A stretch of 64,000 bases of DNA from Rickettsia typhi (GCA_945865905.1 CAMBFC010000002.1:119505-183504); one strand, 5' to 3'. Positions 2,878-45,819 are shown, counted from the first letter of the stretch. Made by a program: numbers and translations. The notes: generated by a model not told the origin, from the sequence alone.

Positions 2878-3444
2878 CTATTTCGCCTTCACATTTTTGA
2901 TCATAAACGGCACTTGCGAAATTGTAAAAATCATCGAAATTGGAAAAACACCAAATAACTTAAAATTTACCCAAAAATCAGTGGGAAAATTGCGCCAGAT
3001 AAATTCATTTAAGATGGCTAAGAAAATAAAAAACAATCCCCAACGCAAAGATAAAATTAGCCAAGCGCGATCATCCATTTTTATGCTTTCACCAAACAAA
3101 TGCTTGATTAAAGGTTTTTTGGTAAAATAGCCGTAGAACAGCACAATCGCAAATAAAGAATTGATTAAAGTTGGCTTAATTTTAATGAATAAATCATCGC
3201 CCGAAATTAGCGTTAAACCACCAAAAATTCCTAAAATTATTGCAGAAATTAGCGGCATTTTCGCAATTTTCTTGGTTAAAATATAAGCAATTATTAACGC
3301 AACAAAACTAGAAACTAAAAGGCATAGAGTTGCTGGCAGCAATGGATCTGGCGCGGTAGAAAATTTATAGACAATGATAAAAATTATCAGCGGAAAATAA
3401 TCGCATAAAAATTTTGACCAATTTTCTTTTGATTTATTCTGCAT
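2878..3444 (-). CDS. yciB: Inner-membrane septation protein A (YciB/IspZ)
   Basis: DYFPLIIF, FIKIKPT, WVNFKLFG. Start reassigned to ATG 3444 (MQNKSKENW). Confidence 0.9.
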   Translation of the reverse strand: MQNKSKENWSKFLCDYFPLIIFIIVYKFSTAPDPLLPATLCLLVSSFVALIIAYILTKKIAKMPLISAIILGIFGGLTLISGDDLFIKIKPTLINSLFAIVLFYGYFTKKPLIKHLFGESIKMDDRAWLILSLRWGLFFIFLAILNEFIWRNFPTDFWVNFKLFGVFPISMIFTISQVPFMIKNVKAK

Positions 3445-29568: not shown

Positions 29569-29660
29569 TTAAATTAAATATTTATCAACAAATGTTTAAC
29601 CATTGTTAGCAATAACTACACCTATTGTACAATTTTCAAACACAAAATTGCCAGAAAAAA

Positions 29661-30779
29661 ATGGATGAAAAATTTATTAATATCGCACTTAATCTTGCCA
29701 AAAAAAACCTTGGCCTTACTGCGCCTAATCCCGTTGTTGGCTGCGTTATCGTAAAAGATGGCGTGATAATCGCTACTGGCGTTACCGCCCCTTCAGGTCG
29801 ACCTCATGCTGAAAATATCGCCATCAACAAAGTTAAAGACAAATCACATCTTGAAGGCGCAACACTTTATGTTACACTAGAGCCATGTTGCCATCTAGGC
29901 GCAACTGGCGCCTGCACTGATTTAATTATCGCTAGCAAAATCAAAAAAGTGGTGATTGCTTGTCAAGATCCCGATAAAAGGGTTAATGGTGGAGGCATTG
30001 CAAAACTGTGCCAAGCCTCTATTGATGTGGCTTGCGGCATTATCGAAAACGAAGCCCGCGAATTTAACAAGGCATTTTTTAAGCGACAAAAAACCGGCCT
30101 ACCTTATGTTACTCTAAAATTAGCAACAAGCTTAGATGGCAGAATCGCTACAAAAACTGGCGATAGCAAATGGATCACTGGTGAAAAATCACGACGCTAC
30201 GCCCATTATTTGCGCGCACAAAATGATGCAATAATAATTGGCGCCAACACTTTGCGCCAAGATAATCCAATGCTTGATTGCAGAATTAGTGGGCTCGAAG
30301 AATATTCTCCAACGCGAATCATCGTTGCAAATAATTTAGATTTTGATTGTGAGATGCAAATTTTTCAAACTGCTCACAAAATTAAAACTATCATTTTAAC
30401 CAATAAAATCAACGCCTCTGCGCAGGAAGAAAAAATCAATGAACTAAAAAAACTGGCTGTTGAATTTATTTTTTGCGAAGAAAATGTTGCAAAACATTAT
30501 GATAAAAATAACAAAATAGATCTGCGCCTAGCCTTGCACAAAATCGCTGAAAGCGGCATAAATTCTGTTCTGGTTGAAGGCGGAAAAAATCTCGCAACGC
30601 AATTTTTGCAAAAAGATTTAGTTGATGAATTAATCTGGATTAACGGTAATCAAATTATTGGTGAAGATGGCTTATCTGCGCTTGGAAATATTGGCGTAGA
30701 AAAAATAGGTGATGCGCTGCAATGGGTTGCAAATGGCGATTCGGATGGTTGTGCTAAATCTTATCGAAAACTGAGTTAA
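29661..30779 (+). CDS. ribD: Riboflavin biosynthesis deaminase/reductase
   Basis: PNPVVGCVIV, HAE, TLEPCCH, KLATSLDG, VLVEGG. Start taken at ATG 29661. Confidence 0.95.
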   Translation: MDEKFINIALNLAKKNLGLTAPNPVVGCVIVKDGVIIATGVTAPSGRPHAENIAINKVKDKSHLEGATLYVTLEPCCHLGATGACTDLIIASKIKKVVIACQDPDKRVNGGGIAKLCQASIDVACGIIENEAREFNKAFFKRQKTGLPYVTLKLATSLDGRIATKTGDSKWITGEKSRRYAHYLRAQNDAIIIGANTLRQDNPMLDCRISGLEEYSPTRIIVANNLDFDCEMQIFQTAHKIKTIILTNKINASAQEEKINELKKLAVEFIFCEENVAKHYDKNNKIDLRLALHKIAESGINSVLVEGGKNLATQFLQKDLVDELIWINGNQIIGEDGLSALGNIGVEKIGDALQWVANGDSDGCAKSYRKLS

Positions 30780-30922
30780 AAAAGATGGGGATGGAGTTTG
30801 GATTGGAGGCTCTGCTGCTCAGACACCGCGCTCATCTGATTTTTAAGCAAGCGTAGCTTGCGATGAGGCGCAGAACTCGCCTCATCGCCTCCAATCCAAA
30901 CTCCATCCCCATCTTTTTTAAC
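30775..30922. repeat. 148-bp palindromic element (MITE/RPE/REP-like), copy 1
   Basis: Perfect 36-bp inverted repeats at 30775-30810 and 30887-30922, enclosing three small hairpins. Confidence 0.85.
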
Positions 30923-30931
30923 GACCCACAC

Positions 30932-32101
30932 CTAAAGAATATCTCTATAAATCTTAATAGTCTCTTTACACATTTCTTGACTAGAAAAATGCTTCTCGAC
31001 ATTTTTTCTAGCATTATCAACAAGCTGCGCCTGTTTTTTCTCATTCATATTTAGCGCCTGATCAATTAAATTTGCCATTTTATCAACATCTCCAACATCA
31101 ACCAAAAAACCAGTTTTGCCATCAATAATGGTTTCTAGCGAACCACCAATATTAGTAGCGATGATAATTTTTTTCATTGCTTGTGCTTCAATGGCAATTC
31201 TGCCAAAAGCTTCAGCTCTAACACTAGCAGAAATTACTAAATTTGAAATTGCATAAGCAACTGGCATATCTTTGCAAATGCCAACAAATTTTGCCTTGCC
31301 GCCCAAATTTTGTGCAATGATTTTTTTTTCAATTTTTTTGCGAAAACTTTTGTGACCATGATCAGAGCCAACAAACACACAGAAAAATTCGCTTTTTACT
31401 TTTTCTAAAGCATTAATTAAAAATTCATGTCCTTTCCAAGATGTAATGCGAGCGGGAAATAAAATTATTTTTTTATCTTCGGGCAAATTCCATTTTTTGC
31501 TTAAATCAATTTTGCGAGCTAAAGAAATTGAATCAATGTTAAAGTAGCCAGTATCAACGCCTCTATGCACTACAGAAATTTTTTTGCTGAGATCATTTTT
31601 AATAAATGGCTGATAATTTTCTAGCACATAATTTTTGATAAATTCAGAAACCACAATAATGTGATCAGCCTTTAACATAAAAGAATTATAAAGCCTTTTT
31701 AGAATAAAATTTTTACAGAAAAATCCTTTTAAAGAATAATTGCCGTGAACTGTACTAATTAATTTTGTGCCTGTTTTTTTGCAAGCAAAATAGGCACTAA
31801 TCATTGGCGCTCTAGATCTAACATGCAATATATCAACTTTATATTTTTCGATTAATTCAACTATTTCATTGATGTTAAAAAAGATTCGCAGTGGATTTTT
31901 TGTTTTAACAAAAAGAGTAATATGCTGAATTTTTGCTTCACGCAATTGATATGTCATCAAGCCACCAGACGATACAACTATTGGCTCGAAACCATCTTGC
32001 TGCAAAGCCTTAGCAATATCAATTGTGCCGCGTTCAACCCCACCACTTTGCAAAGATGGCAAAATTTGCATTATAACCGTTTTTTTATTACCTCTGTTCA
32101 T
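30932..32101 (-). CDS. Glycosyltransferase family 4
   Basis: QILPSLQSGGVERGT, HVRSRAP, FPARITSWKGH, EAFGRIAIEAQAM. Start taken at ATG 32101. Confidence 0.9.
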   Translation of the reverse strand: MNRGNKKTVIMQILPSLQSGGVERGTIDIAKALQQDGFEPIVVSSGGLMTYQLREAKIQHITLFVKTKNPLRIFFNINEIVELIEKYKVDILHVRSRAPMISAYFACKKTGTKLISTVHGNYSLKGFFCKNFILKRLYNSFMLKADHIIVVSEFIKNYVLENYQPFIKNDLSKKISVVHRGVDTGYFNIDSISLARKIDLSKKWNLPEDKKIILFPARITSWKGHEFLINALEKVKSEFFCVFVGSDHGHKSFRKKIEKKIIAQNLGGKAKFVGICKDMPVAYAISNLVISASVRAEAFGRIAIEAQAMKKIIIATNIGGSLETIIDGKTGFLVDVGDVDKMANLIDQALNMNEKKQAQLVDNARKNVEKHFSSQEMCKETIKIYRDIL

Positions 32102-32102
32102 C

Positions 32103-33383
32103 TTATATAATTTTGCTGACAATTATTGTCTCATCACGCTTAGGGCCATTTGATAGAATTGCGATTTTTACTTCACATAATTCTTCAATTTTTTTCAAAT
32201 ATTTTTGTGCATTAATTGGCAAATCTGCAATAGCTTTTGCGGTAGAAGTTGATTGCATCCAGCCGTCAAATTCTTCGTAGATTGGTTCAATTTTTTCACA
32301 GAGATCAATGCTTTGGGGCAAGTATTCATAACGCTTGCCATCGATTTTATAGGCAACACAAATTTTAATTTTTGGCAATTTATCAAGAACATCTAACTTG
32401 GTAAGCGCAATTTCTTTTGCCGCAGAAAGTTTGATAACATGGCGCACTAATGCCGCATCAAACCAACCACAGCGGCGATTGCGACCAGTTACTGTTCCAA
32501 CTTCACCGCCTTCAATACGCAAAAATTCTCCTGTTGCATCTTCAAGTTCAGTAGGAAATGGGCCAGAACCCACGCGAGTTGTGTATGCTTTTAACACACC
32601 TAAAGTTTTTGTAAGTGCATCAGCACCAAGGCCACTTCCAAGAGCCACCTGCCCTGCCAGTGTATTTGAAGAAGTAACAAAAGGGAATGTTCCAAAATTA
32701 ACATCAAGCAATGCACCTTGCGCACCTTCAAACATCACATTTTTGCAAGCATATAATTTTTGAAAAATCTCATAGGCTGGCTTAACAAAAGGTGCGATCT
32801 GTTCTTTAATTTGCGATAATTCTGCCACTAATTCTGCAACATTTCGCACGGCAACGCCCAAACTTTTGCGCAATAAATTGTGATAAAATAATAGATTTTC
32901 TATGCGCTCTGGCAAAGTTTTTTCATCATATAAATCGCAAATTCTGATAGCGCGACGACCGGCCTTATCTTCATATGCAGGGCCGATTCCGCGACCTGTG
33001 GTGCCGATTTTTTTCTCACCTTTACTTTCTTCAAGAAATTGATCTAACTCGCGATGCACTGATAAAATCAAACAGCAATTATCTGCAATATTTAATTTTT
33101 GCGGAGAGATATTTATGCCCGCCTCACCAATTTTTTTGATTTCGCTAAATAACGCCACCGGATCAACAACTACGCCGCTTCCAATTACTGAAAATTTATC
33201 ACGAATAACACCAGAAGGCAACAAACTTAGCTTGTAAGTTTTATCACCAACTTTAATTGTGTGTCCAGCATTGTGCCCACCTTGAAAGCGAACTACCGCA
33301 TCAAACTGATCGGCCAAAAAATCCACGATTTTTCCTTTTCCTTCATCGCCCCATTGCAGGCCGACTATTGCGACATTAGCCAT
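32103..33383 (-). CDS. purA: Adenylosuccinate synthetase
   Basis: GLQWGDEGKGK, GGHNAGHT, EGAQG, GTVTGRNRRCGWFD. Confidence 0.98.
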   Translation of the reverse strand: MANVAIVGLQWGDEGKGKIVDFLADQFDAVVRFQGGHNAGHTIKVGDKTYKLSLLPSGVIRDKFSVIGSGVVVDPVALFSEIKKIGEAGINISPQKLNIADNCCLILSVHRELDQFLEESKGEKKIGTTGRGIGPAYEDKAGRRAIRICDLYDEKTLPERIENLLFYHNLLRKSLGVAVRNVAELVAELSQIKEQIAPFVKPAYEIFQKLYACKNVMFEGAQGALLDVNFGTFPFVTSSNTLAGQVALGSGLGADALTKTLGVLKAYTTRVGSGPFPTELEDATGEFLRIEGGEVGTVTGRNRRCGWFDAALVRHVIKLSAAKEIALTKLDVLDKLPKIKICVAYKIDGKRYEYLPQSIDLCEKIEPIYEEFDGWMQSTSTAKAIADLPINAQKYLKKIEELCEVKIAILSNGPKRDETIIVSKII

Positions 33384-33597
33384 TGTTTTTTGAGATTTTT
33401 TTTAAAATAGCAGGAGCCGTTTTTTGTAAAGTAAAATATTTGCTGCAATACGGGCAAATAACAAAATCATTTTTACCCATATCAAGATAAACCAAAGGGT
33501 GACCCGAGGCTACGCCCTTATCATCTCTAGTGCCATCACAAGCAACTTTTTTAGAGTTTGTGTGCAAAATTTCTAGTGGACTTGAAAAAGAAGTCAT
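33376..33597 (-). CDS. zf-CHCC zinc-finger protein (NDUFS6-like)
   Basis: VACDG...GHPLVYL...CPYC. Confidence 0.88.
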   Translation of the reverse strand: MTSFSSPLEILHTNSKKVACDGTRDDKGVASGHPLVYLDMGKNDFVICPYCSKYFTLQKTAPAILKKISKNNG

Positions 33598-33702
33598 GAA
33601 GAGAGTTGATTTTATACTGAAATAATATTTAATTCTTACGAAAAATGTCCTGCGATTAATTTATCTTCTGGCAAATTCTATTTCAAGCACGAAATCAAAC
33701 AT

Positions 33703-35547
33703 ATGCAAATAAACCAAAGATTTAAAATTATATTGGCCTTATTTTTAGCTTCGTTCTTGCTGATTGGCAAAGTTGAAGCAGCAAATAGCGAGTGGAAAAA
33801 TGCCCTTGAAAGCAATAGTGGTGCTAAAGTCAGAGTTTTATCAAGCTTTTATACTGATGATAAACAGCAAAAAAACTTAATACTAGGCCTGCAAATAAAC
33901 ATTAAAGGTGGCTGGCATGTTTATGGCAATGATTCTGGCGGCATCGGAATGCCTCCAAGTGTTGATTTTGCAGGTTCTTCAAACTATAAGCAACACCAAA
34001 TCTTTTGGCCACAAGCAATATCAAAGGAAGAAAAAATTGGCGCCGAAACAATAAAATACAGTGTTTATGAAGATGAAGTTATTTTGCCGATAGAAATTGT
34101 TCTCAAAAATAACGACCAACCAACTCAATTAAAATTAAAATTACAATATGGATTATGCAAAGATATTTGCATCCCTGCTAGCGCTGAGTTTGTGCTTGAT
34201 ATTGAAAATAAAGAAGATGCGGATTCTTTAAAAATGATTCAAAAATTTATTGATAAAAAAATTATCTTTGAAAATGAAGGCGACAAGATCGCAGAACAAT
34301 CTGCAGAAAAAAATTCTCAGTTGGCGACAATCACTTTACTTCCCGCACTTTTAGCAGCTTTTCTTGGTGGCTTAATTTTAAACATCATGCCTTGCGTGCT
34401 GCCAGTTCTTGGCATCAAATTAATGTCGGTGATTAAATGTCAAGAATCAAAAACTTCACGCATTCGCTTCGCTTTTTTTGCAACAACTCTTGGAATCATT
34501 TCTTGCTTTGCGGTTTTTGCAGTTTTTGCCATCATAATCATGCTTACGGGCAATATTTTTAATTGGGGATTGCAATTTCAAAATCCTTATTTTTTGATCT
34601 TTTTGATCATGATTTTACTTGGTTTTGCCGCCAATATGATTGGAATGTTTGATATAACTTTTGATCAATTTGCCTCAAACTTTATTAACAAAAAAATCAC
34701 TGAAAAAGAATCCGATAAAAGAAATATTTTTATGCCAAATTTTCTTTCAGGAATTTTAGCAGTATTGCTTGCAACCCCTTGCTCAGCGCCGTTTCTTGGC
34801 TCGGCCATTTCATTTTCAATAACGCAAAGCAGTCCAGTTATTATACTTGTTTTTTTGACAATGGGCTTGGGTTTGGCGTTGCCTTATATCATTATGATTA
34901 TCTCGCCAAAAATAGTTTATCTATTGCCAAAACCAGGAAACTGGATGCTTCGCATTAAAAATTTAATGACGATATTTTTGATCGCCACAATAGCTTGGTT
35001 AATTTATGTTCTTGCCAACAATATCGGCAATGCCGCAGCAGCAATAGCAGCAATAGCCAGCGTATTATTTTTTACTTGCTTCAAAATCAAAATAAAATCT
35101 CTTCAAATTATTTCTTTTGCCTTGCTAGCAATAACGATGATTATTCTGCCGCAAGTCTTTCAGGGCTTTAAAAAAGCTCGCCATCCCGCTGATGCGCTTT
35201 GGATACAATTTAACGAAGAAGGTCTTCATGCTTTGGTTGCAAATGGCCAAACCGTAGTGGTTGATGTTACTGCTGATTGGTGCATCACTTGCAAATTTAA
35301 CAAGCTTCGTGTTTTTCATGATACAGAAGTTGTTGATCATTTGCGCGATAACAATATAGTAGCGATGCGTGCTGATATAACTAAGCCCGATGAGACAGTT
35401 TTAACATTCATTCACAAAAAAGGTCGCTATGCCATTCCATTTAATGCAGTTTACGGCCCCAATGCTCCGGATGGTTTATTGACCAACGAATTATTAAACA
35501 AAAAAGAATTATTTGAGTTAATCGATAAAGCTTCAACCAAAAAATAA
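33703..35547 (+). CDS. dsbD: DsbD-family thiol:disulfide interchange protein
   Basis: [48 protein letters not shown]. Confidence 0.9.
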
Positions 35548-35549
35548 CA

Positions 35550-37013
35550 ATGTCAGATATTACAAAATTATCCATCAAGCAAAGTCTTGAAGGCCTTAAA
35601 AATAAACAGTTCAGCGCCGTTGAATTAACTTCGGCCTATATTAAAAATATTGAAAATAACCGTCGCTTAAATGCATTTATTACTGATAGTTTTGATACTG
35701 CTTTAGTACAAGCAAAACAATCTGATACAAACATTGCAAATGGCGTATTTCGTGATCTTGAAGGCATTCCACTTGGCATAAAAGATTTATTTTGTACCAA
35801 AAATATTCGCACCACTGCTGCCTCAAAAATGTTGGCAGATTTTGTGCCAACTTATGAATCAACCGTTACACAAAAACTTCTAGATGCAGGCGCATCAACG
35901 CTTGGCAAGCTTAATATGGATGAATTTGCGATGGGATCATCCAGTGCTACCAGTTTTTTTGGCCCAACAATTAATCCTTACAAAGCTAATAATTCAGATG
36001 AAGATCTAGTGCCGGGAGGCAGTTCTGGTGGTTCTGCGGCTGCAGTTGCTGCAAATTTATGCGCGGGGGCCACTGGCTCCGATACAGGCGGCTCTATACG
36101 CCAACCCGCATCATTCACTAACACCGTTGGCATAAAACCTACTTATGGCCGCTGCTCGCGCTATGGCATGGTTGCCTTTTCAAGCTCGCTAGATCAAGCC
36201 GGAATCTTTGCTAAAGATGTTTATGATGCTGCGCTTTTACAAAGAATAATCTCTGGTTTTGATATCAAAGATTCTACCTCAAAAAACATTGCGGTGCCAC
36301 AATTTGAAAAGCTTCTCACCCCTAACATTAAAGGTAAAAAAATCGGTATACCAAAAGAATATCGCGTTGATGGAATGCCTGCAGAAATAGAAAAACTATG
36401 GGATCAAGGCGCTACAATGCTCAAAGATCACGGCGCAGAAATTGTCGAAATTTCACTACCCCACACTAAATTTGCCCCTGCAGTTTATTATGTTTTGGCC
36501 TCTGCTGAATGCTCATCAAACCTTGCTCGCTTTGATGGCGTGCGCTATGGCTATCGCTGCAAAGATGATGGCTTATCACTCAATGAAATGTATGCCAGAA
36601 CCCGCGCTGAAGGCTTTGGCAATGAAGTAAAAAAACGCATTTTGGTTGGCACTTATGTTTTATCATCAGGATATTATGATGCTTATTACAAAAAAGCCCT
36701 GCGCGTGCGCAATTTAATCGCTCAAGATTTTAAAAATGTCTTTGGCAAAATTGATGCAATACTTGCTCCAACTACTCCCAACGCAGCTTTTCCGCTTTCG
36801 CAAACAAAAAATCCTGATCCGATAAAAATGTATCTTAATGATGTATTTACAATTCCGGCAAGTTTAGCGGGATTACCAACGATGTCTGTGCCAGCTGGCC
36901 TTAATGAGCAAGGTCTTCCAATGGGATTGCAAATTATCACTAATATTTTTGACGAACAAACCATGCTAAATATGGCATTGGCAATTGAAGAAACCGTCAA
37001 ATGCGCAAAATAA
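35550..37013 (+). CDS. gatA: Asp/Glu-tRNA amidotransferase subunit A
   Basis: [41 protein letters not shown]. Confidence 0.98.
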
Positions 37014-38695
37014 TTAATATTCTCAATAAAGGTTTTGGTGCTGATTTATTGGCAATCATAGCTCTTGTTGGATCAATATTAACTGCACAATATATCGCCG
37101 CCGCTTTATTGGTTTTTATGCTGCTTAGCGGCAAAGCTCTCGAAAAATACGCTTCACGCAAAGCCTCTTCTGTGCTTGAGGCTCTAGCAAAAAGGGTTCC
37201 ATCAATTGCCCATCTGCGCAACAAAAACATTATCACCGAAATCGCCATTACTAAAATTGTTATTGGCGATGAAATCGTCATCTATCCCCACGAAACCTGC
37301 CCCGTTGATGGCAGCATCATTGAAGGCAGCGGCACAATGGATGAATCTTATCTTACTGGCGAACCTTACCAAATTTTAAAAACCGTTGGATCGCTTGTGC
37401 TATCTGGCGCCATCAATGGTGATAGCGTCATCGTGATTCGCGCCGAAAAACTGGCGCAAGATTCACGCTACGCCAAAATTATGGAAGTAATGAAAGAGGC
37501 CGAAGAACGCCGCCCCCACTTGATGCGCCTCGCTGATGAAATCGGTGCAATCTTCGCTCCAATCGCATTAATTTTTGCCGCCGCCACTTGGTATTTTAGC
37601 GGCGATGTTTTGCGGTTCATCGCTGTGCTTACAGTGGCAACGCCTTGCCCGCTATTGATCGCCATTCCAATTACTGTTATTGGCGCGATTTCTTTAGCAG
37701 CAAAAAATGGTATTATTATCAAAGATCCAACCGCGCTAGAACGCCTACCCACCTGCTCCACCGCGATTTTTGATAAAACCGGCACGCTAACTTATGGCGA
37801 ACCAAAATTAACTGAAATCATTGTCGCTCAAGGCTTCGCAGCCAATGATATTTTGCAAAAAACCGCCAGCTTAGAACGCTATTCGCGCCACCCATTAGCC
37901 ATTGCAATCAAAAATGCATTAGAAGAAGAAAAGCTAGAATTATTAGAAGCCACCGAGGTATCAGAGCGCTCTGGGCAAGGCTTGCGCGGCATTGTCTCTG
38001 GCCAAGAAATAATGATCACCAGCCGCAATAAAGTTCTAAAACAAGATCCACAACTAGCCTCAATCATTGCGGTTAGCGGCTCTGGCCTAGAATGTATAAT
38101 TATGATTGATCAAAAATATGCCGCAACTTTAAGATTTCACGATGCTCCGCGAGCAGACAGCCATTCATTTATCAACCATTTAGGACCTGAGCATAATTTT
38201 AAAAAAGTGATTTTACTTTCTGGCGATAGAGAGTCAGAAGTCAATTATCTAGGGGCTTTGCTCGATATAAAACAAACTTACGCCTCGCAAAGCCCTGAAC
38301 AAAAACTTGAGTTTGTTAAAAATGAAACCGCCCTTGCCCCTACTCTATTCATGGGTGATGGCATTAATGATGCACCAGCACTAACTGCCGCAACTGTTGG
38401 CCTTGCCTTTGGGCAACATAACAACATCACCTCTGCAGCCGCTGGCGCTGTGATTCTAGAGAATACTCTAACTAAAGTTGATGAGTTAATTCATATTAGT
38501 ATTGCGATGCGAAAAATCGCCCTGCAAAGTGCTGGGGGAGGAATGCTATTAAGTTTAGTGGGTATGGGTTTCGCCGCCGCAGGAATGTTATCACCCGCTC
38601 AAGGTGCGCTGTTGCAAGAAATTATTGATGTAGTCGCAATTTTAAATGCGCTGAGGATTACTTGGAGTGTGAAGGTTGTTAGTGATGTAAAATAG
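37001..38695 (+). CDS. Heavy-metal P1B-type ATPase (P1B-5-like), apparently lacking the first TM segments
   Basis: [34 protein letters not shown] in the last TM. Confidence 0.85.
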
Positions 38696-38696
38696 G

Positions 38697-38723
38697 GGAA
38701 TGGTTGCGGGGGCTGGATTTGAA
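38697..38723. repeat. att direct repeat: copy of the tRNA-fMet 3' end
   Basis: ggaatggttgcgggggctggatttgaa, identical to 42727-42753. Confidence 0.93.
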
Positions 38724-38962
38724 ATGGGCTCGTTAGGCCTTGATATTGCTGGATCTGAATTTTGGCTGTACATGGTTTTGTGCATTAAAAATTCTTAACT
38801 TCTCATTTAGCGGGTTTAAATTTGGCTTCAGTTATAAATAAAATATTAGCCCGAGTTTGATTTATGGTTTGTAAAAAGAGTGCACCTTAATTTGCTTCTT
38901 AAATATTTTTAACAATTGATTTATGGTAAGTTTTTAGATAACATCCCCTATTCAGTATCAAT

Positions 38963-39949
38963 TTAAACTATTGCAGATGGATAAGGTTTATAACTATACT
39001 GACAACCACTTTTCTTTAGGCTATCTAAAAAATCAGAAAATTTCTCATCAATATTAACTTTATTAGGTTTGATTAGTGGGATAATTTCAGCAAATTTTAC
39101 CCAGCTTGAACCAGCGATTTTGGCAAACACTGTATTGATTTTTTTTATGTCCTCACCGACCTCAATTTCCAATACTCCATGATAAAATTTTAACCAGATC
39201 CAACCATTAACATAGCTATCTCTAAAAATTCTGGAATTCTTAAAGTCCTCCATGGAAACATAATCAGCAGCGTACAAAAAAATACTGGCATTAAAAATTA
39301 TCTCAATATCACTAAAATCATCACTATTTTCTGATGACGACTTGTAATCATTATAGTCATCAGATAATAACCCAGCACTACTAATATAAGTGGCAATCTC
39401 CTCCACAAATTTCAAATCTTTACTGCTTATCTTGCTTAATGCATCTATCGTAATTAAAGAAAAAGACCCTTTATTAACTATCTCTCCCGCCATTAATTTA
39501 GCCCAAAAATCACGAACATCCTCATCTGAAATATTTTTTATTTTGTCAAGAATTGTTAAAAATTTTGTGCTGCCAAAATTAGGTATATCGCAATCCTCTT
39601 CAATTTGCTTTACAGCCTTAATTACCACACTTGTCATATTCAGGGATTGCTGCCTTCTTATGCCTTCTATTGTATGTTCTTCGATTTTGCTGCATGCATC
39701 AAATATGGATAAGCCCTGAGAAAGAGAGACTTTTAAAAAAGCCTGAATAATCTTTTTATTGCGCTCAGAATTATCCGTCTTGTTTTTAAGAAGCAAAGAT
39801 TCAGCTACGACTTCTAAATCACTTTCGCTTGGATCAATAGGGCCTCTAAGTTCCGCAGAAAATTTGCCCCATGCAATTTTTTTAATTTTATAAAATATTT
39901 TAGGAATATTTCCAATTAAATTGAAAAATTTTTTTATATATTTATTCAT
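38963..39949 (-). CDS. DUF2806-like protein
   Basis: RRQQSLNM, NISDEDVRDFWAKLMAGEIVNKGSFSLITIDAL resemble the DUF2806 core as I recall it. Confidence 0.65.
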   Translation of the reverse strand: MNKYIKKFFNLIGNIPKIFYKIKKIAWGKFSAELRGPIDPSESDLEVVAESLLLKNKTDNSERNKKIIQAFLKVSLSQGLSIFDACSKIEEHTIEGIRRQQSLNMTSVVIKAVKQIEEDCDIPNFGSTKFLTILDKIKNISDEDVRDFWAKLMAGEIVNKGSFSLITIDALSKISSKDLKFVEEIATYISSAGLLSDDYNDYKSSSENSDDFSDIEIIFNASIFLYAADYVSMEDFKNSRIFRDSYVNGWIWLKFYHGVLEIEVGEDIKKINTVFAKIAGSSWVKFAEIIPLIKPNKVNIDEKFSDFLDSLKKSGCQYSYKPYPSAIV

Positions 39950-39968
39950 AATTCGATCGCAAAAATGT

Positions 39969-40637
39969 TTAGTTACTTTTTTTCCATCTCACAAACTCAT
40001 CAGCATTTGAAAAAATCTCTTTTAATATTTCAGCAGATTTTTTTATCCCGCCCCAATATTCAAAATTAGTTTTTTCATCAGGATGCTCCTGATGATGACC
40101 TCTTATCGCCATTCCAAGAGGATAATCATCTAACTCAATTTCAATATCATTTCTTAGTCTGTAAATTAATTCCTGTATATGACTTAACTCCTTACTAGTA
40201 TATGATTTTACAACTTTTTTCTGATCTTTCTCCCTTATTTTTTCAGAAGAAAGATTTCCCTCTTTCTTCTTGGGAGTTCCTAATATCAAATATCGGGTTG
40301 ATTCGTTATATTTGGAGTATTCTTCCAAATGCTTAATTTTATCTTTTTTATAAAAATTATATTTTTCTTCATTTGGTAATCGTAGAGCAAGTTCTTTTAA
40401 ATTATGACCCCAATGTGGTATATAAGGGTTTCCGGCACTATTTTTTGGCAAATGATCATTTTTATATTCTTGATCTGTATCAATTAATAAAACTTTTAAA
40501 TATTTTTCTATTGCTTGAGCAAAATGATAGTAGGACGGTAAATGAAGATGATATTTCCACAAAACCGCTGCAGCGAGCAAATCATTGTCCGCATCAAATA
40601 TTAGAGTAAGTTTGTTAGATGGTCTATTTTTTGTCAT
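39969..40637 (-). CDS. HEPN-domain protein
   Basis: YHFAQAIEKYLK, GHNLKEL, TRY are classical HEPN signatures; an RGHHQEH (Rx5H) lies near the C-terminus. Confidence 0.7.
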   Translation of the reverse strand: MTKNRPSNKLTLIFDADNDLLAAAVLWKYHLHLPSYYHFAQAIEKYLKVLLIDTDQEYKNDHLPKNSAGNPYIPHWGHNLKELALRLPNEEKYNFYKKDKIKHLEEYSKYNESTRYLILGTPKKKEGNLSSEKIREKDQKKVVKSYTSKELSHIQELIYRLRNDIEIELDDYPLGMAIRGHHQEHPDEKTNFEYWGGIKKSAEILKEIFSNADEFVRWKKSN

Positions 40638-40807
40638 AACTATATTTTTGTTAAAAATCTACAGAGCCATTGTGCTCAAACAGTCAGATGAAAATTATGG
40701 AAAGCGTCATTGGAACAACTAACATAATGGTATCAATTATCATCAATTTAAGGATATAACTGATACAATAATATCTTTTATTACCGATAGTTATACCTAC
40801 CTGATAA

Positions 40808-42061
40808 CTAAATTTTATTCGCCCTCTCCAAATCCTCATGCTCAAAAGCAGAAGACATCCGCTCAATTTCTTTTTTTCTTAAGTTAAAATTTTTAGCTAC
40901 CTCGCGCCATTTAGCAGTCGATTTTGCAACTTCTTTAATAATTTTATTCGCTTCATTTTTATTTAATCTGAAGTTTTCAGAGACCGAGAGCGCAGTTTCT
41001 AATGAGGCAGAGTTATTATTGAAATCGATTGCAGTCGTTAGGATTCTAGGTTTTATTTCAGTTGGTGTTGGGTTAAGGTCATAAGCGGGAGAAAGTCTCC
41101 AACCCTTTTGGCTTTCATAAAGAAATCCGTGATTACGCAAGTGATCATCCGTATTCGAAATTAACACATTAAAAACTATACGCCTCCATAGTTGCTTCAT
41201 ATCTTCATCGGGTGCTGCTCCATATTGCGCTAAAGCATCAGCAATTTCGAGATAGCTGTGTTGCTCATTATCTCTTGCTTGCAACATGCTCATAGCCGAA
41301 AGAAAAGGAATGCGGATTTTTTTGATCCGATCAAAACGCTTAACAATCAAAACTGGCTTTTTGTTAATTTTTTCTAAACTAAATGAAGGCGTTGTGATTC
41401 CTGCATTTTTTGCCAAAGTCAGAGCAACTGCTTCCCATTTTTCTATTTCAAATTCGTCATCTTTTCTTGGAAATTTCGCAATTGCAAGATTGCCATTTTT
41501 ATCAAGCACTGATGATTTAGGCCTCGCACCTCCAAGAGAAGAGCCGGGAGCTAAGAGTAGCTTTAGGTCTTGAGAATTTTCCTTATCGTCAACAAACTTT
41601 TCCGAAGCAGCAAGAAGTTTTGGCAAATCTATTAATGGCGGGATGGATTGTTTGTCTTTCGGGCTTAAAAAATCACCATCAATTTTTTCAGAAAAACGCA
41701 GCGCACCTTGACGCAATTCATCACTTACACCAAGCAGATAATCAGCTTCACTCAAACTGCGAGCCGTTTCTTTTTCATTTTTTGCGCGTCTGCTTTCAGC
41801 TCTTCGCATTAAAACTCTTCCCCAACGATCAGGTGCAGAATCGCCAATTGCACCAAAAATATCTTGATTAATTCCAGTGTGAAATACTCCCTCAGTAAGC
41901 TTCAAAGCCGGTTCAAGTGCAAATCTCTCAGGATAAACAAGCCAGCTTTTATCATATTCAAAAGAAGCGCTCTCTTTACCTCTTTTGGAGTGAAACCAAA
42001 GTCTGCCAATAAAAATATTATTTTCGCCTAAAGCGATGTGGACAAAAATTTCTCTACTCAT
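40808..42061 (-). CDS. hipA: HipA-family Ser/Thr kinase toxin
   Basis: SFEY N-terminal domain, GSSLGGARPK, IAKFP, NTDDHLRNHGF, LSPAYDLNP. Confidence 0.92.
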   Translation of the reverse strand: MSREIFVHIALGENNIFIGRLWFHSKRGKESASFEYDKSWLVYPERFALEPALKLTEGVFHTGINQDIFGAIGDSAPDRWGRVLMRRAESRRAKNEKETARSLSEADYLLGVSDELRQGALRFSEKIDGDFLSPKDKQSIPPLIDLPKLLAASEKFVDDKENSQDLKLLLAPGSSLGGARPKSSVLDKNGNLAIAKFPRKDDEFEIEKWEAVALTLAKNAGITTPSFSLEKINKKPVLIVKRFDRIKKIRIPFLSAMSMLQARDNEQHSYLEIADALAQYGAAPDEDMKQLWRRIVFNVLISNTDDHLRNHGFLYESQKGWRLSPAYDLNPTPTEIKPRILTTAIDFNNNSASLETALSVSENFRLNKNEANKIIKEVAKSTAKWREVAKNFNLRKKEIERMSSAFEHEDLERANKI

Positions 42062-42383
42062 TTGTTATTGTTATTTTTCTTGATCTAATTCTTTTAGGTA
42101 AATTCTCTTCATCAATTTGTCTTCCAACTAAATCATGATTAGAATCAACTAAATCAGAAATTCTACTTATCATCCCAAGCACAAACAAAACTGATACATA
42201 GTTACCCATTGATGTTGTTGGATCACCTTTTTCAATTTTCGCTAAAGTACCACGCGAAATTCCAGCGCGCTCTGCCATTAATTTAGTTGCAATACGACGA
42301 CGGCGACGAGCTTCAGAAATATCCTCACCAATTTTTCGTAACGCTTTTGTAACCGGAATAGGTAATTCTAATGTATTTTTCAT
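42054..42383 (-). CDS. hipB: XRE-family HTH protein, HipB-like antitoxin
   Basis: ARRRRRI...MAERAGISRGTLAKIEKGDP; overlaps the hipA start by 8 bp. Confidence 0.8.
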   Translation of the reverse strand: MKNTLELPIPVTKALRKIGEDISEARRRRRIATKLMAERAGISRGTLAKIEKGDPTTSMGNYVSVLFVLGMISRISDLVDSNHDLVGRQIDEENLPKRIRSRKITITNE

Positions 42384-42420
42384 AAAAAATATAAGGTCTT
42401 ATTTAATAGGCAATATGAGT

Positions 42421-42459
42421 TATAATGACTATTATATAAAGCATTATGCTTTAATGCAA
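42421..42459 (-). promoter_or_regulatory. sigma70 promoter of hipBA with a palindromic candidate operator
   Basis: TTGCAT(42454-59)-N17-TATAAT(42431-36); AAAGCAT-T-ATGCTTT at 42438-42452; TATAAT-gact-ATTATA at 42421-42436. Confidence 0.6.
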
Positions 42460-42726
42460 TAAAAATTCTTAATATTTATAGGTCATTTATACATGAAAAA
42501 TTCATACCATGCAAAATTTACTTATTTTTACAGAGTGTCATGAAGCATCTAGAATCAAGGCTTTAGAGGCTTATAATGGAGCCAAAAATGACATTTTCGT
42601 ATATGGTTTTGTACATGGAAAATTTTTGGATTCAGGCGAAATTAGCTGGATTTCTTTGGAAAGAGGAATGGCCATGAAGCCTCTCGTGCGTAGAATTATC
42701 GGACTTTATTGGATTTCTTTGAAAGT

Positions 42727-42753
42727 GGAATGGTTGCGGGGGCTGGATTTGAA
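42727..42753. repeat. att direct repeat within tRNA-fMet
   Basis: Identical to 38697-38723. Confidence 0.93.
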
Positions 42754-42807
42754 CCAACGACCTTTAGGTTATGAGCCTAACAAGCTACCGGGCTGCTCTA
42801 CCCCGCG
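42731..42807 (-). tRNA. Initiator tRNA-fMet (CAT)
   Basis: CGCGGGGTAGAGCAGCCCGGTAGC...GGCTCATAACC...GGTTCAAATCC...CAACCA; C1:A72 mismatch; encoded CCA. Confidence 0.95.
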
Positions 42808-42845
42808 ACAAAACTATAAACTATCGCAAGTTAAAGCGCAAGTTG

Positions 42846-44042
42846 TTAGTTTGCTCTAACCTCAATCACCTTATCAATAGCGCGAAGCCTCGCCAAATCT
42901 GCTTCATCGAGCAAATAATTTTCTGGCAATGCAACATTGGCTTTTTTATCACCCATCTCTACCACAAAAATTACTTTGGTTTTTTTAGCAAAACTTGCCG
43001 GCGCCAAAAGCTGTGAAAGCACGGTTTTAGAGGTTAGAATAGGATCTCGTTCTTTAACAAAAATTTGCACTTCACTAAAAATTTTTTTCGCTTCAAGCTT
43101 CTCGAGCTTTTGTTTGTAATGGTCTACGACTGGCGCGGCTTTTGCAAAATTATTGCCAGAAGAATTTTCTCCGCCCTTATTATAATTATTTTCTCCACCT
43201 TTATTATATCCCCCACCCCCGCCAAACCTGCGCTGCGGTTGTTTTTTAATATCCTCAAAAGGCTCTTTTGCCGCCTTCACATTTTTGATAAAATCAGCTA
43301 ATTTTTGCACATCACGAATCAAAATCCGCACCCCCCCATCATCTTTTTTTATCAAACACTCAATCACAACTTGGCTGCCATCAACTAATATATCGCGAGC
43401 GTTGGTAATTATAGCTTCGTCAAAAATCATCGCTTCAAAAATCCCCAGCGGATCAGAAATTGTCATATAGGCAAAACGACCGCGCGGCCCCGATCTGTGC
43501 TTGCTGCCAGCAATTACTCCCGCCATTTTTATCAGATTACTATCTTGCAATTCATCTTTCTCAATCTTCTCAGAGAAGACTACGCCTCGCTTCTTAAGCT
43601 CTAACAAGTGATCATCAAGCGGATGTTCGTTCAAAAAAAATCCAAAAGCATCGAACTCTTTTTGTAGACGCTCTTCCTTTGTCCAATCTGCAACTTTTTT
43701 AAGCTCGGGCTTAGATTTTGCTTCATCGAGAAGCTCTCCAAACATGCTCATTTGATTGCTTGAAGCTTCATCTTTTTTTTGATTTGCGGTGGCTGCAATC
43801 AGCTCAAATGATTCAAAAATTTGACGACGATTATCGGCGATAGAATCTAGCGAGCCAGATTTGGCAAGGGCTTCGATTGATTTTTTGTTTATTGCTTTTG
43901 CATCCATTCTGATTGCAAAATCATGAACATCTTTAAATTTTCCTGCTGATTTTCTTTCTGCAACTGCCGCTTCCATCATGCCCAAACCCACGGCTTTAAT
44001 GCCTCCAAGACCAAATCTGATTGCGTATTTTTCTTGCGTCAT
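42846..44042 (-). CDS. dnaE: C-terminal fragment (about 398 aa) of DNA polymerase III alpha: HhH, OB fold and CTD only
   Basis: AIRFGLGGIKAVG, INKKSIEALAKSGSLD, NQMSMFG clamp-binding motif, EFDAFGFFLNEHPL, MAGVI...FAYMTISD. No PHP or palm domain upstream. Confidence 0.85.
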   Translation of the reverse strand: MTQEKYAIRFGLGGIKAVGLGMMEAAVAERKSAGKFKDVHDFAIRMDAKAINKKSIEALAKSGSLDSIADNRRQIFESFELIAATANQKKDEASSNQMSMFGELLDEAKSKPELKKVADWTKEERLQKEFDAFGFFLNEHPLDDHLLELKKRGVVFSEKIEKDELQDSNLIKMAGVIAGSKHRSGPRGRFAYMTISDPLGIFEAMIFDEAIITNARDILVDGSQVVIECLIKKDDGGVRILIRDVQKLADFIKNVKAAKEPFEDIKKQPQRRFGGGGGYNKGGENNYNKGGENSSGNNFAKAAPVVDHYKQKLEKLEAKKIFSEVQIFVKERDPILTSKTVLSQLLAPASFAKKTKVIFVVEMGDKKANVALPENYLLDEADLARLRAIDKVIEVRAN

Positions 44043-44043
44043 T

Positions 44044-44841
44044 TTATAATACAAAAAACAAGATCACTATTCCAAGCACGATTCTGTAGATCGCAAATGG
44101 CACAAAATTATGTTTGCTAACATAACCAATGAACCATTTTATTACTAAAATTGCCGAAATAAATGCCGCGAGAAATCCCACCAAAATTAGCTCAGCACCT
44201 GAAAATGTAAGATTAGCGTAGTTTTTATAGAGATCATAAAAAGTTGCGGCAGCGATTGTTGGAATCGACAAAAAGAAAGAAAATTCTGTAGCGGTTTGAC
44301 GATTAAATTTAAGCAAAAGCCCACCAATTATGGTTGCGCCCGATCTTGATATTCCGGGAATCATTGCAATTGATTGAAAACATCCAATAGCAAAAGCCTT
44401 GAGCGGCGTAACTTCATCGATGTTTTTAATGTTGGATTTTCTTTCTTTGCGATCAACCAAAATCATCACTGCGCCACCAACAATTAACGCCCAAGCAATC
44501 ACTGCACTTGAAAATAAAACTTGTTTTATAAAACTATGAAAAGCCAATCCCAGAAAGGCCGCAGGCAAGAATGCAATCAGCAAATTCAGCAATAATTTTT
44601 GATTATTTTTTTTGTGAAAATCCACTAATAAAGAAAAAATCCGCACGCGATAAATCACCACCACCGCTAAAATAGCACCAAACTGAATGACAATTTCGAA
44701 TAAATTATTTTGAATAGAATTAAAATCAACCAGCCAAGAAAATAATAAAAGATGCGCGGTTGATGAAACTGGAAGAAACTCGGTGAGGCCTTCAACCACA
44801 CCAGAAGCCATTGCTTTTATGAGATCTGGAAAATAATGCAT
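44044..44841 (-). CDS. uppP: Undecaprenyl-diphosphatase (BacA)
   Basis: GVVEGLTEFLPVSSTAHL, IQFGAILAV, IPGISRSGATI, EFSFFLSIP. Confidence 0.97.
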   Translation of the reverse strand: MHYFPDLIKAMASGVVEGLTEFLPVSSTAHLLLFSWLVDFNSIQNNLFEIVIQFGAILAVVVIYRVRIFSLLVDFHKKNNQKLLLNLLIAFLPAAFLGLAFHSFIKQVLFSSAVIAWALIVGGAVMILVDRKERKSNIKNIDEVTPLKAFAIGCFQSIAMIPGISRSGATIIGGLLLKFNRQTATEFSFFLSIPTIAAATFYDLYKNYANLTFSGAELILVGFLAAFISAILVIKWFIGYVSKHNFVPFAIYRIVLGIVILFFVL

Positions 44842-44887
44842 GAGATTGCTTGGGATTTTTTACCCCTCTAATATCGAGGGGTTTAAG

Positions 44888-44973
44888 TGGTACCTCCGAT
44901 CCGAATCGAACGGACACATCCTAGGGATAATAGATTTTGAGTCTATCGCGTCTACCAATTCCGCCACAGAGGC
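44888..44973 (-). tRNA. tRNA-Leu (CAA)
   Basis: GCCTCTGTGGCGGAATTGGTAGACGCG-ATAGA-CTCAAAA-TCTAT, long variable arm, GTTCGATTC, terminal ACCA. Confidence 0.95.
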
Positions 44974-45120
44974 CCAAGTTAAACAAAATCAAATCAAGCT
45001 AAAATGGCTGAAAAGAAAATGCGTCTATTAATCTAAACTAAAATTTTTAAACCGCAATTTTCATTTTCAACCAATCCCAAATGTAGTAAAATCTAAAAAG
45101 TAATAAAAATGGGGAGGCTG

Positions 45121-45149
45121 ATTATAAGGGGGGCGCGGCTAAAAGTCAA
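45121..45149 (-). promoter_or_regulatory. sigma70 promoter for tRNA-Leu, possibly also uppP, dnaE-C and tRNA-fMet
   Basis: TTGACT-N17-TATAAT followed by a GC-rich discriminator (CAGCCTCCCC). Confidence 0.7.
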
Positions 45150-45154
45150 TGCGG

Positions 45155-45314
45155 ATGGTGATTCTGGTTAAAAGAGAGGGGAAAGAGGCTCCTCTGCCTC
45201 TCAGACAGTGATGGTCTAAGGGAGATCTCGTTTGAACTTTTGCTATTTTTATAAGACCATCAAAACTCGATTCAGAGGAGCCTCTTTCCCCTCTCTTTTA
45301 ACCAGAATCACCAT
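45155..45314. repeat. 160-bp palindromic element, copy 2
   Basis: Perfect 42-bp inverted repeats at 45155-45196 and 45273-45314; inner gatggtct/agaccatc stem. Confidence 0.88.
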
Positions 45315-45375: not shown

Positions 45376-45819
45376 ATGAAAACTTTAGGCAAAAAAACTA
45401 ATTATCAATTGCAGCATCCCGATAAAAAAATTTTAGAAGCAGTGAAAAATCCGCATGTTGATGTAGATTATGCGATCAGCTTTTCATGCCCAGAATTTAC
45501 TTCGCTCTGCCCTATTACTAGTCAGCCCGATTTTGCGCATTTGGTTATTGATTATGTGCCCGATAAATCAATTTTAGAAAGCAAATCACTCAAACTTTAT
45601 TTGTTTTCTTATCGCAATCATGGCGCGTTTCATGAGGCTTGCACAGTACAAATTGCTAAGGATATAATCGCTTGTATTAAGCCAAAGTGGCTGAGGATTG
45701 GTGGTTATTGGTATCCGCGCGGCGGCATTCCGATTGATGTATTTTTTCAACAAGGAAAATTACCTGCTAATGTTTTTGCGCGAGAACATAAAGTGAAAAG
45801 CTACAAAGGCCGCGGGTAG
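45376..45819 (+). CDS. queF: NADPH-dependent preQ0 reductase (short type)
   Basis: [38 protein letters not shown]. Confidence 0.96.

Follow-up and report, generated by a model that had tools for sequence, protein, structure and literature searches.

The DNA analysed here, called the window throughout, is a 64-kb stretch (GCA_945865905.1 CAMBFC010000002.1:119505-183504) of a 1.49-Mb metagenome-assembled draft genome (21 contigs, 36.9% G+C, 98.2% complete) of an uncultured freshwater member of the Rickettsiales, whose closest named relative is a metagenome-assembled genome (MAG) of the same order from Lake Baikal. It carries two long palindromes, copy 1 and copy 2, which are the subject of this work. 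Copy 1 lies downstream of ribD (29625-30779, + strand; deaminase and RibD_C domains), with the first 5 nt of its 5′ arm, GTTAA, overlapping the ribD stop codon; on its other side, a convergent gene for a GT4 glycosyltransferase (30932-32122, − strand) ends 9 nt from the palindrome. Copy 2 is flanked by the gene for tRNA-Leu(CAA) (44888-44973, − strand), whose transcription is directed away from the element, and by queF (45376-45819, + strand), which starts 61 nt downstream and thus places copy 2 in a divergent, promoter-side spacer.

Both elements, described here on the + strand, are by a wide margin the longest inverted repeats of the window. An inverted-repeat search located the arms of copy 1 at 30775-30810 and 30887-30922 (36 nt each) and those of copy 2 at 45155-45196 and 45273-45314 (42 nt each); in either case the arms are 100% complementary, the 3′ arm being the exact reverse complement of the 5′ arm, and the distance between them is exactly 76 nt. 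Copy 1 reads GTTAAAAAAGATGGGG...GGAGGCTCTGCTGCTCAGACA, and copy 2 reads GTTAAAAGAGAGGGGAAAGAGGCTCCTCTGCCTCTCAGACA. As single-stranded DNA (ssDNA), the copies fold with −57.0 kcal/mol (z = −12.9) and −55.7 kcal/mol (z = −13.0), respectively, and 0 of 200 dinucleotide shuffles equalled these values in either case. A preliminary description of the window had reported the perfect 36- and 42-bp arms at 30775-30922 and 45155-45314, as we do, and the motifs that it listed as shared are present in both copies. One of these, the GTTAAAA/TTTTAAC pair, holds for the window copies but not for the family described below, in which about 4 of 60 copies have it; the related class-A arm begins TTGAAAAAG.

A conserved centre with exchangeable apices and free arms

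Searching the genome with an nhmmer profile yielded 60 full copies and 3 fragments, and a covariance model, built as the preliminary description had suggested, retrieved the same 60 copies. The preliminary description, which covered 2 of the 60, had proposed that further copies exist and that they share a core, and both proposals stand: the genome has 70 occurrences of the motif CTCAGACA, where about 34 would be expected, and the pattern of the basal module defined below has 55 matches, with 0 for a reversed control. Full palindromes measure 114-224 bp and occupy 0.59% of the genome in total. Every one of the 60 copies is intergenic, often a few bases from gene ends, with overlaps of open reading frame (ORF) ends of at most 25 nt. 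The 25-nt case, at C1:228396, was rejected as a genuine overlap, as the ORF merely runs into the arm and its orthologues end 6 residues earlier; coding potential was likewise rejected, since an ORF readable through one class-A copy loses its frame through indels between copies in the alignment. Orientation relative to the neighbouring genes is random (++17, --15, +-15, -+10), and core orientation has no association with local GC skew (30/60). Where an arm touches or overlaps a stop codon, the gene lies upstream of the core and is co-oriented with it in 10 of 11 cases (p = 0.012).

An alignment of 33 cores assigned copy 1 to type 1 (54 copies in the genome) and copy 2 to type 2 (6 copies), a difference between the window copies that the preliminary description had overlooked. 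Types 1 and 2 have only a basal module in common, CTCTG-C-NN-CTCAGACA ... AACTCG-NN-T-CAGAG, which comprises the clamp CTCTG/CAGAG, two pyrimidine–pyrimidine mismatches, one or two covarying Watson–Crick pairs and an asymmetric loop with CTCAGACA on its 5′ side and (G/A)AACTCG on its 3′ side. In type 1, the structure above the module consists of stem P2, a bulge of 8 conserved nt reading TGATTTAA, and hairpin P3 (GCAAGC-GTA-GCTTGC). Both paired elements show covariation between copies, and the unpaired segments barely vary. The type-1 core of copy 1 (30811-30886) contains a remnant of the clamp, CTCAGACA at 30818-30825, P2, the bulge TGATTTTTAA, a P3 hairpin reading GCAAGC-GTA-GCTTGC, and AACTCG at 30874-30879. 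Copy 2 has its clamp CTCTG at the end of the 5′ arm; its type-2 core (45197-45272) consists of C-CT-CTCAGACA (motif at 45200-45207), P2 formed by GTGATGGTCT and AGACCATCA, an AT-rich variable apex, and AACTCG at 45264-45269.

In what follows, G000 is the genome holding the window, other G numbers are compared genomes, L numbers are compared sequences (L005 and L007 from Baikal; L042 is G006:C140) and C numbers are contigs. Other apices on the basal module are a type 3 in G004, where the arms are no shorter than 63 nt, a minimal form of 11 nt in G007, and a type-2-like apex in a metagenomic lineage that is only 75-84% identical.

The arms vary from copy to copy. Class B has 12 copies, class A 8-12 (copy 1 included) and class C 7, and about 30 arm sequences are unique. 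Class-A arms have an A-tract at the start and a T-tract at the end; the 5′ arm of copy 1 runs from an A-tract into a G-rich tract, and that of copy 2 is class-A-like, GGTTAAAAGAGAGGGGA. Across the family, the 5′ arm is G-rich (632 G versus 198 C, with G exceeding C in 54 of 58 copies); G-richness peaks in the 10-25 nt that adjoin the core, and the outer arm is AT-rich like the local spacer DNA. Variability of the inner arm (6-25 nt) exceeds that at 26-50 nt only marginally (p = 0.07). This conserved centre with free ends is the reverse of the logic of both REPINs (hairpins formed by doublets of repetitive extragenic palindromic (REP) sequences) and miniature inverted-repeat transposable elements (MITEs).

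The class-C scaffold (arms TTAGATCT..GCTTTCAC-GATAAAT) also surrounds an unrelated 25-nt core, TTTCGCGCGCAAGCACAGCTACA, at G000 C4:26189, C7:57870 and C1:107713. Given these arms around an unrelated core and the varied apices on the basal module, scaffolds and cores are modular across hairpin families. The core at G000 C6:49333 combines P2 halves of different subtypes (GCGCCCATC pairing with GATGAAGCGC) and is apparently chimeric, which would imply within-core exchange between copies. No core-less class-A palindromes were found in the genome, which rejects pre-existing class-A hairpins as insertion targets.

Five genomes of the genus (G000, G002, G004, G006 and G007) have the module, and so do contigs from lake metagenomes. 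No copy was detected in four others of the genus (G001, G003, G005 and G008) or in 54 genomes from 16 other genera of the family, and each of 250 other genomes of the order gave at most one match to the pattern, a chance-level count. The basal module is confined to part of one genus. Membership of G004 was missed by BLAST and recovered by the covariance model. Rfam 15 returned only two tRNAs for the window and no family match for the elements, for which only microRNA-precursor models appeared, far under thresholds, as generic hairpin noise. The palindrome family is apparently undescribed. The preliminary description had offered it as a new MITE, REP/REPIN or Rickettsia palindromic element (RPE) family; the broad likeness and the novelty hold, but with variable termini and a conserved centre the family runs opposite to REPINs and MITEs.

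Arm pairing is probably maintained mainly by copying

Family-wide, 58 of 2109 arm pairs are mismatched. We compared 15 orthologous pairs of elements, G000 versus strains or versus the Baikal species, and found 590 arm columns unchanged, 43 mirrored in both arms (27 substitutions and 16 indel columns), 12 changed in a single arm, and 6 with old mismatches common to both lineages. Two separate 2-nt indels are mirrored in both arms between species; mirrored indels would be very rare under independent compensatory mutation, which indicates that one arm was copied from the other.

The element at C16:14191-14377 records the direction of such an event. One of its arms terminates in GCTCAAGATTTAA, which comprises the final codons, stop included (...LKI*), of a 358-aa gene, and the far arm ends in the exact inverse, TTAAATCTTGAGC, abutting the stop codon of a convergent gene, so that 13 nt are mirrored. 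The end of the 358-aa gene is kept to the last residue in G002, G004 and G006, all three of which lack the element at this site; the direction of mirroring is fixed by this conservation. In a further comparison, that of the strain L065 with C7:28137-28360, flanks and arms are the same and the core is reverse-complemented.

Copy 1 itself carries a double substitution, GA>TC at 30885-30886 (+ strand), which turns the family consensus CAGAG into CATCG and is unique among 53 type-1 cores. The change breaks the usual clamp and yields a perfect 11-bp alternative hairpin between GCGATGAGGCG (30860-30870) and CGCCTCATCGC (30878-30888), and it looks like a templated quasipalindrome correction. The mirrored host sequence at C16, the core flip of L065, the GA>TC change and the decay products described below are signatures of template switching or recombination within the palindrome. 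Homogenisation of arms and inversion of spacers via template switching have been described (PMC8604942, PMC7202029), the latter as switching between inverted repeats (PMC8604942). The preliminary description had taken the perfect arms of dissimilar copies as a sign of co-variation; this co-variation is real, but with mirrored indels, mirrored host coding sequence and core inversion it stems mainly from DNA-level copying of one arm onto the other and not from classical compensatory evolution under selection.

At one locus, L059 versus G000 C1:241580-241759, flank identity is 99.3% and the cores do not differ, yet 11 of 57 arm columns do, all of them mirrored and within the inner 40 nt; these differences are far above the expectation from the flanks and point to a burst of arm turnover or to replacement from another copy.

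SbcD (TIGR00619) was not detected in the 98%-complete genome, although the same search, run as a control, recovered it from 13 of 14 reference genomes. It is probable that the host has no SbcCD hairpin nuclease, and the lack of SbcD may explain the survival of such long palindromes.

Copies are gained, lost and truncated

The orthologous site of copy 1 is empty in G006 and G017, and that of copy 2 lacks the element in G004 and holds a different palindrome in G006; L078, a strain whose flanks are 99% identical, has copy 2 in identical form. The two window copies are gains specific to their lineage, and presence or absence at the level of strains and species was seen at further loci. Where filled and empty sites were compared, an insertion takes the place of a few to about 40 nt of spacer. 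The preliminary description had suggested a TTAA or TA target duplication; none of this or any other kind occurs at any resolved filled/empty junction.

The palindrome of G006 at the copy 2 site (L042, ~3060-3160, orthologous to 45155-45314) has arms TGCACAAATGCTAGAGCGCAGGG... and the core AGCGTCTCGAAGCTTGCTTCGTTCAGC; a second hairpin family occupies copy 2's spacer in that genome.

Truncated elements occur as well: L071 retains a complete 5′ arm and 12 nt of core, and three fragments in G000 keep the 5′ part only. Because deletions can leave a solo arm, one-arm 'empty' sites were not counted as proof of arm growth, and their reading as pre-insertion states was dropped as a general proof; L071 is a deletion derivative. 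One of these three fragments, the degenerate element at G000 C1:160123-160240, has 23-nt perfect arms; the short sequence TCTGAGC, which copies the element's own 5′ motif GCTCAGA in inverted form, takes the place of most of the core, and the core looks as if made symmetric through the same copying process. At L005:3865-3912, in the Baikal MAG, the 5′ arm and the first 14 core nt (GAAGAAAAAAGATTGAGTTAAGGAGAAGGGGCGCTGCTGCTCAGAC, twice) are partially duplicated in tandem upstream of a complete element. Where G000 has a back-to-back class-A/class-B pair (C6:92124-92499), the Baikal sequence (L007:3618-3760) has a single chimera, in which a 5′ arm of class A is joined to a core of class-B type and the 3′ side mirrors a class-B left flank, including a TAGATCT motif.

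Interpretation

We consider it likely that the palindromes form a genus-restricted superfamily of non-coding, non-autonomous hairpin repeats whose arms are copied from a template and whose recognition depends on the basal module. Each element combines the conserved basal module with an exchangeable apical hairpin (of type 1 for copy 1 and of type 2 for copy 2) and long, copy-specific arms. The palindrome would fold back during replication or repair, with one arm serving as template for the other through intra- or intermolecular template switching, a process that would both keep the arms perfect and lengthen them; a host without the SbcCD hairpin nuclease would tolerate such fold-back copying. 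The basal module is a putative recognition site, probably read in the folded single strand, for a factor that spreads or maintains the element. The compared sequences document arm changes fixed in both arms, extension of an arm over host DNA, core flips, truncated remnants, and gain and loss of copies.

Several results weigh against this explanation. No mobilising enzyme was identified among the families searched, and neither transposition intermediates nor exact excision footprints were seen; some one-arm 'empty' sites are deletion products, and only C16 proves mirroring of host DNA. The constraint on the core at individual loci counts both for and against the explanation. Type-1 cores at orthologous loci, which were partly chosen by core patterns, differ at 16 of 871 positions, compared with 43 of 651 arm columns (p = 3e-6), and the mostly coding flanks of these loci differ by about 4.5%; when the estimate was recomputed on the parts of the core that were not fixed by the metagenome search pattern (bulge and P3), the contrast was 5/276 (1.8%) against 33/526 in the arms (6.3%; p = 0.0045). 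Homogenisation among copies is not the cause of this conservation, as locus-specific P2 variants persist between species. Conservation of this kind at individual loci would not be expected if the DNA were purely selfish, and it could point to a function for the host. Mismatches between the arms are also strand-asymmetric, with 33 A·C against 7 G·T in the CTCAGACA orientation (p = 4e-5), the A·C pairs being G·T wobbles on the complementary strand. This asymmetry fits selection on, or exposure of, one folded or transcribed strand and is not predicted by passive template switching alone; with the co-orientation of stop codons, it suggests that one folded or exposed strand matters and leaves room for an RNA or host-function reading.

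One such reading is that the elements are a structured RNA family (small RNAs, 3′-untranslated-region stabilisers or bidirectional terminators) that serves the host, with selection on the RNA fold keeping the arms paired. The near invariance of the unpaired CTCAGACACC, TGATTTAA, GTA and AGAACTCGCCT beside covarying P2 and P3, the constraint on the core at individual loci, and the 33-to-7 excess of arm mismatches that would be G·U wobbles on one particular strand are all in keeping with it, as are the A-tract start and T-tract end of class-A arms, which resemble bidirectional terminators, and the gene lying upstream and co-oriented at 10 of 11 stop-codon-touching arms (p = 0.012). However, mirrored indels and 13 nt of mirrored host coding sequence require copying of DNA; wobble-type arm pairs number just 40 of 2109 on either strand, far below the usual tolerance of RNA stems; gene orientation is random, with copies also in divergent promoter spacers (copy 2, for instance); cores flip between strains; and nothing in Rfam matched above generic hairpin noise. 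We regard this reading, which is not exclusive of template-copied hairpin repeats, as possible but improbable.

Somewhat more doubtful still is a dedicated self-templating system. In it, a factor peculiar to the genus would read the CTCAGACA/AACTCG loop in one strand once folded, introduce a nick or start priming at that point, and promote fold-back synthesis by which one arm is regenerated from the other. If true, this would account for a core conserved locus by locus, for the strand asymmetry of the mismatches, for the G-richness of the inner 5′ arm, for variability that tends to peak beside the core and for the capture of host gene ends. The element would then spread, or benefit the host (as a terminator or insulator between closely packed genes, for instance), through a mechanism and an enzyme not yet described.

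Search for a mobilising enzyme

A REP/REPIN system mobilised by a REP-associated tyrosine transposase (RAYT; Y1 HUH), or a palindrome-associated element of the IS200/IS605 type, would account for high-copy, intergenic, hairpin-forming repeats of 100-200 bp without coding capacity or target duplications, with long hairpins and compensated stem changes, as in REPINs (PMC3116915, PMC8266576); compensatory-looking changes in particular recall them (PMC3116915). Decayed remnants resembling REP singlets and vertical persistence within a lineage are further likenesses. The architecture, however, is inverted: REPINs consist of two conserved inverted REPs that flank a variable spacer, whereas here the centre is conserved and the arms vary. 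In addition, the RAYT/IS200-605 domain Y1_Tnp (PF01797) matched nothing in the 98.2%-complete genome, although 6 of 14 reference genomes gave hits as a control, and TnpB was not found either. We know of no REPIN whose arms hold inverted copies of host gene ends, nor of REPIN core flips. This origin, which the preliminary description had raised together with an IS630 gene as a possible partner, is very unlikely, and no RAYT, IS200/605 or IS630 gene was found in the genome.

The search also covered IS110, IS630 (PF13358), rve, Transposase_31, serine recombinase and reverse-transcriptase genes, none of which was found in the genome; a search for Y2_Tnp yielded zero matches in the control set itself. 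Four tyrosine recombinases and one IS5-like DDE transposase gene are present. The latter (DUF772 and DDE domain, 287 aa) lies at a contig end (G000 C3:130562-131425) and, with a fragment of 89% identity at C2:2296-2538, represents the only transposase-like sequence found in the genome. It was rejected as the mobiliser, as the ends of the IS5-like element are unlike the hairpins and the gene occurs only in G000 and G004, which mismatches the distribution of the module. Two phage-type integrases were rejected because their distribution likewise differs from that of the module: one of 395 aa, with close homologues only in G007, and one of 383 aa (G000 C1:177638-178786), which is a pseudogene in G004, G005 and G007; homologues of the 383-aa integrase contain 9 in-frame stops at G007:C177:102-1169 and 2 at G004:C19:23127-24113. 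The tyrosine recombinase that adjoins the C19 copy has ordinary XerC/D-like domains, and a gene flanked by two of the six type-2 copies, an arrangement reminiscent of RAYTs, is parA/soj.

The IS5-like gene and its fragment bear on a further alternative, that the palindromes are classical MITEs, descended from an IS5-like or IS630-like DDE insertion sequence and bounded by terminal inverted repeats and a TTAA/TA duplication. In MITEs the terminal inverted repeats are conserved and the target is duplicated, and RPEs are often found in frame within genes. Like MITEs and palindromic elements such as Correia/NEMIS, RUP, ERIC and RPE, the elements here are small, AT-rich, intergenic, non-coding, non-autonomous, hairpin-capable and scattered in a compact genome, their host belongs to the same order as Rickettsia, and some class-B copies of a distant lineage end in symmetric CTCTAGATCT termini. 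In contrast, termini here are copy-specific, no duplication was seen at filled/empty junctions, the sole transposase candidate differs from the hairpins in its ends and from the module in its distribution (G000 and G004 only), and no IS630, rve or IS110 gene was found, so that this alternative is, if anything, even less credible than the preceding one. The family is set apart from RPEs, by their description, in that 60 of 60 copies are intergenic; in addition, the 250 other genomes sampled from the order yielded no basal module above chance level. Finally, an assembly artefact or chance palindrome, conceivable for a metagenome-assembled draft of 21 contigs, can be dismissed, as the same elements stand at the same loci in independent assemblies (the Baikal MAG and Joint Genome Institute metagenome contigs, from several samples), fold with z ~ −13, and number 60 copies with a conserved core.

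Comparison with known systems and significance

In function the elements behave as REPINs or MITEs do, as selfish, non-autonomous hairpin repeats, yet they have neither conserved termini nor a target duplication, and no RAYT was found. The closest parallel to the copying process is template switching at quasipalindromes (Ripley model; PMC7202029, PMC8604942), in which one arm templates the other, with multi-nucleotide and indel changes that perfect a repeat, extension of the arms, and spacer inversion by intermolecular switching; all three outcomes were seen here. That process, however, acts as a mutational mechanism at scattered short repeats (arms of ~5-20 bp, spacers of a few nt), whereas this family has 20-80 bp arms, a structured core of 66-76 nt and 60 copies. 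Template-switch copying appears to be the normal evolutionary mode of the family.

Bacterial interspersed mosaic elements (BIMEs) of the RIP (RIB) kind in enterobacteria are inverted REP pairs around a central conserved binding motif for integration host factor (IHF), and are thought to be protein-binding sites or mRNA stabilisers. Here too, inverted arms enclose a conserved centre in intergenic positions, often between convergent genes; unlike here, BIME arms are conserved REPs, and by eye the core has no consistent IHF-like consensus. The pattern of core conservation suggests a folded single strand rather than a duplex site. In this respect the elements resemble integron attC sites, which conserve outer R and L boxes in the order ...AAC/GTT... 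on imperfect stems: in both, conservation bears on the structure of a folded single strand and not on its sequence, and one strand is distinguished by unpaired bases placed asymmetrically. The differences are that the inner module is conserved here, the arms are perfect, the GTT...AAC order is reversed and there is no integron organisation.

The family records with unusual clarity how palindromes change in nature: homogenisation, growth over host genes, spacer inversion and decay can be followed among close strains. Since the centre is conserved and the ends are free, a recogniser would read a small asymmetric loop in the folded strand and not terminal repeats, and such a factor could reveal a new mode of mobilising or maintaining DNA hairpins. 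Occupying 0.6% of a streamlined genome, abutting stop codons and able to rewrite gene ends, the elements matter for the annotation and the evolution of uncultured Rickettsiales.

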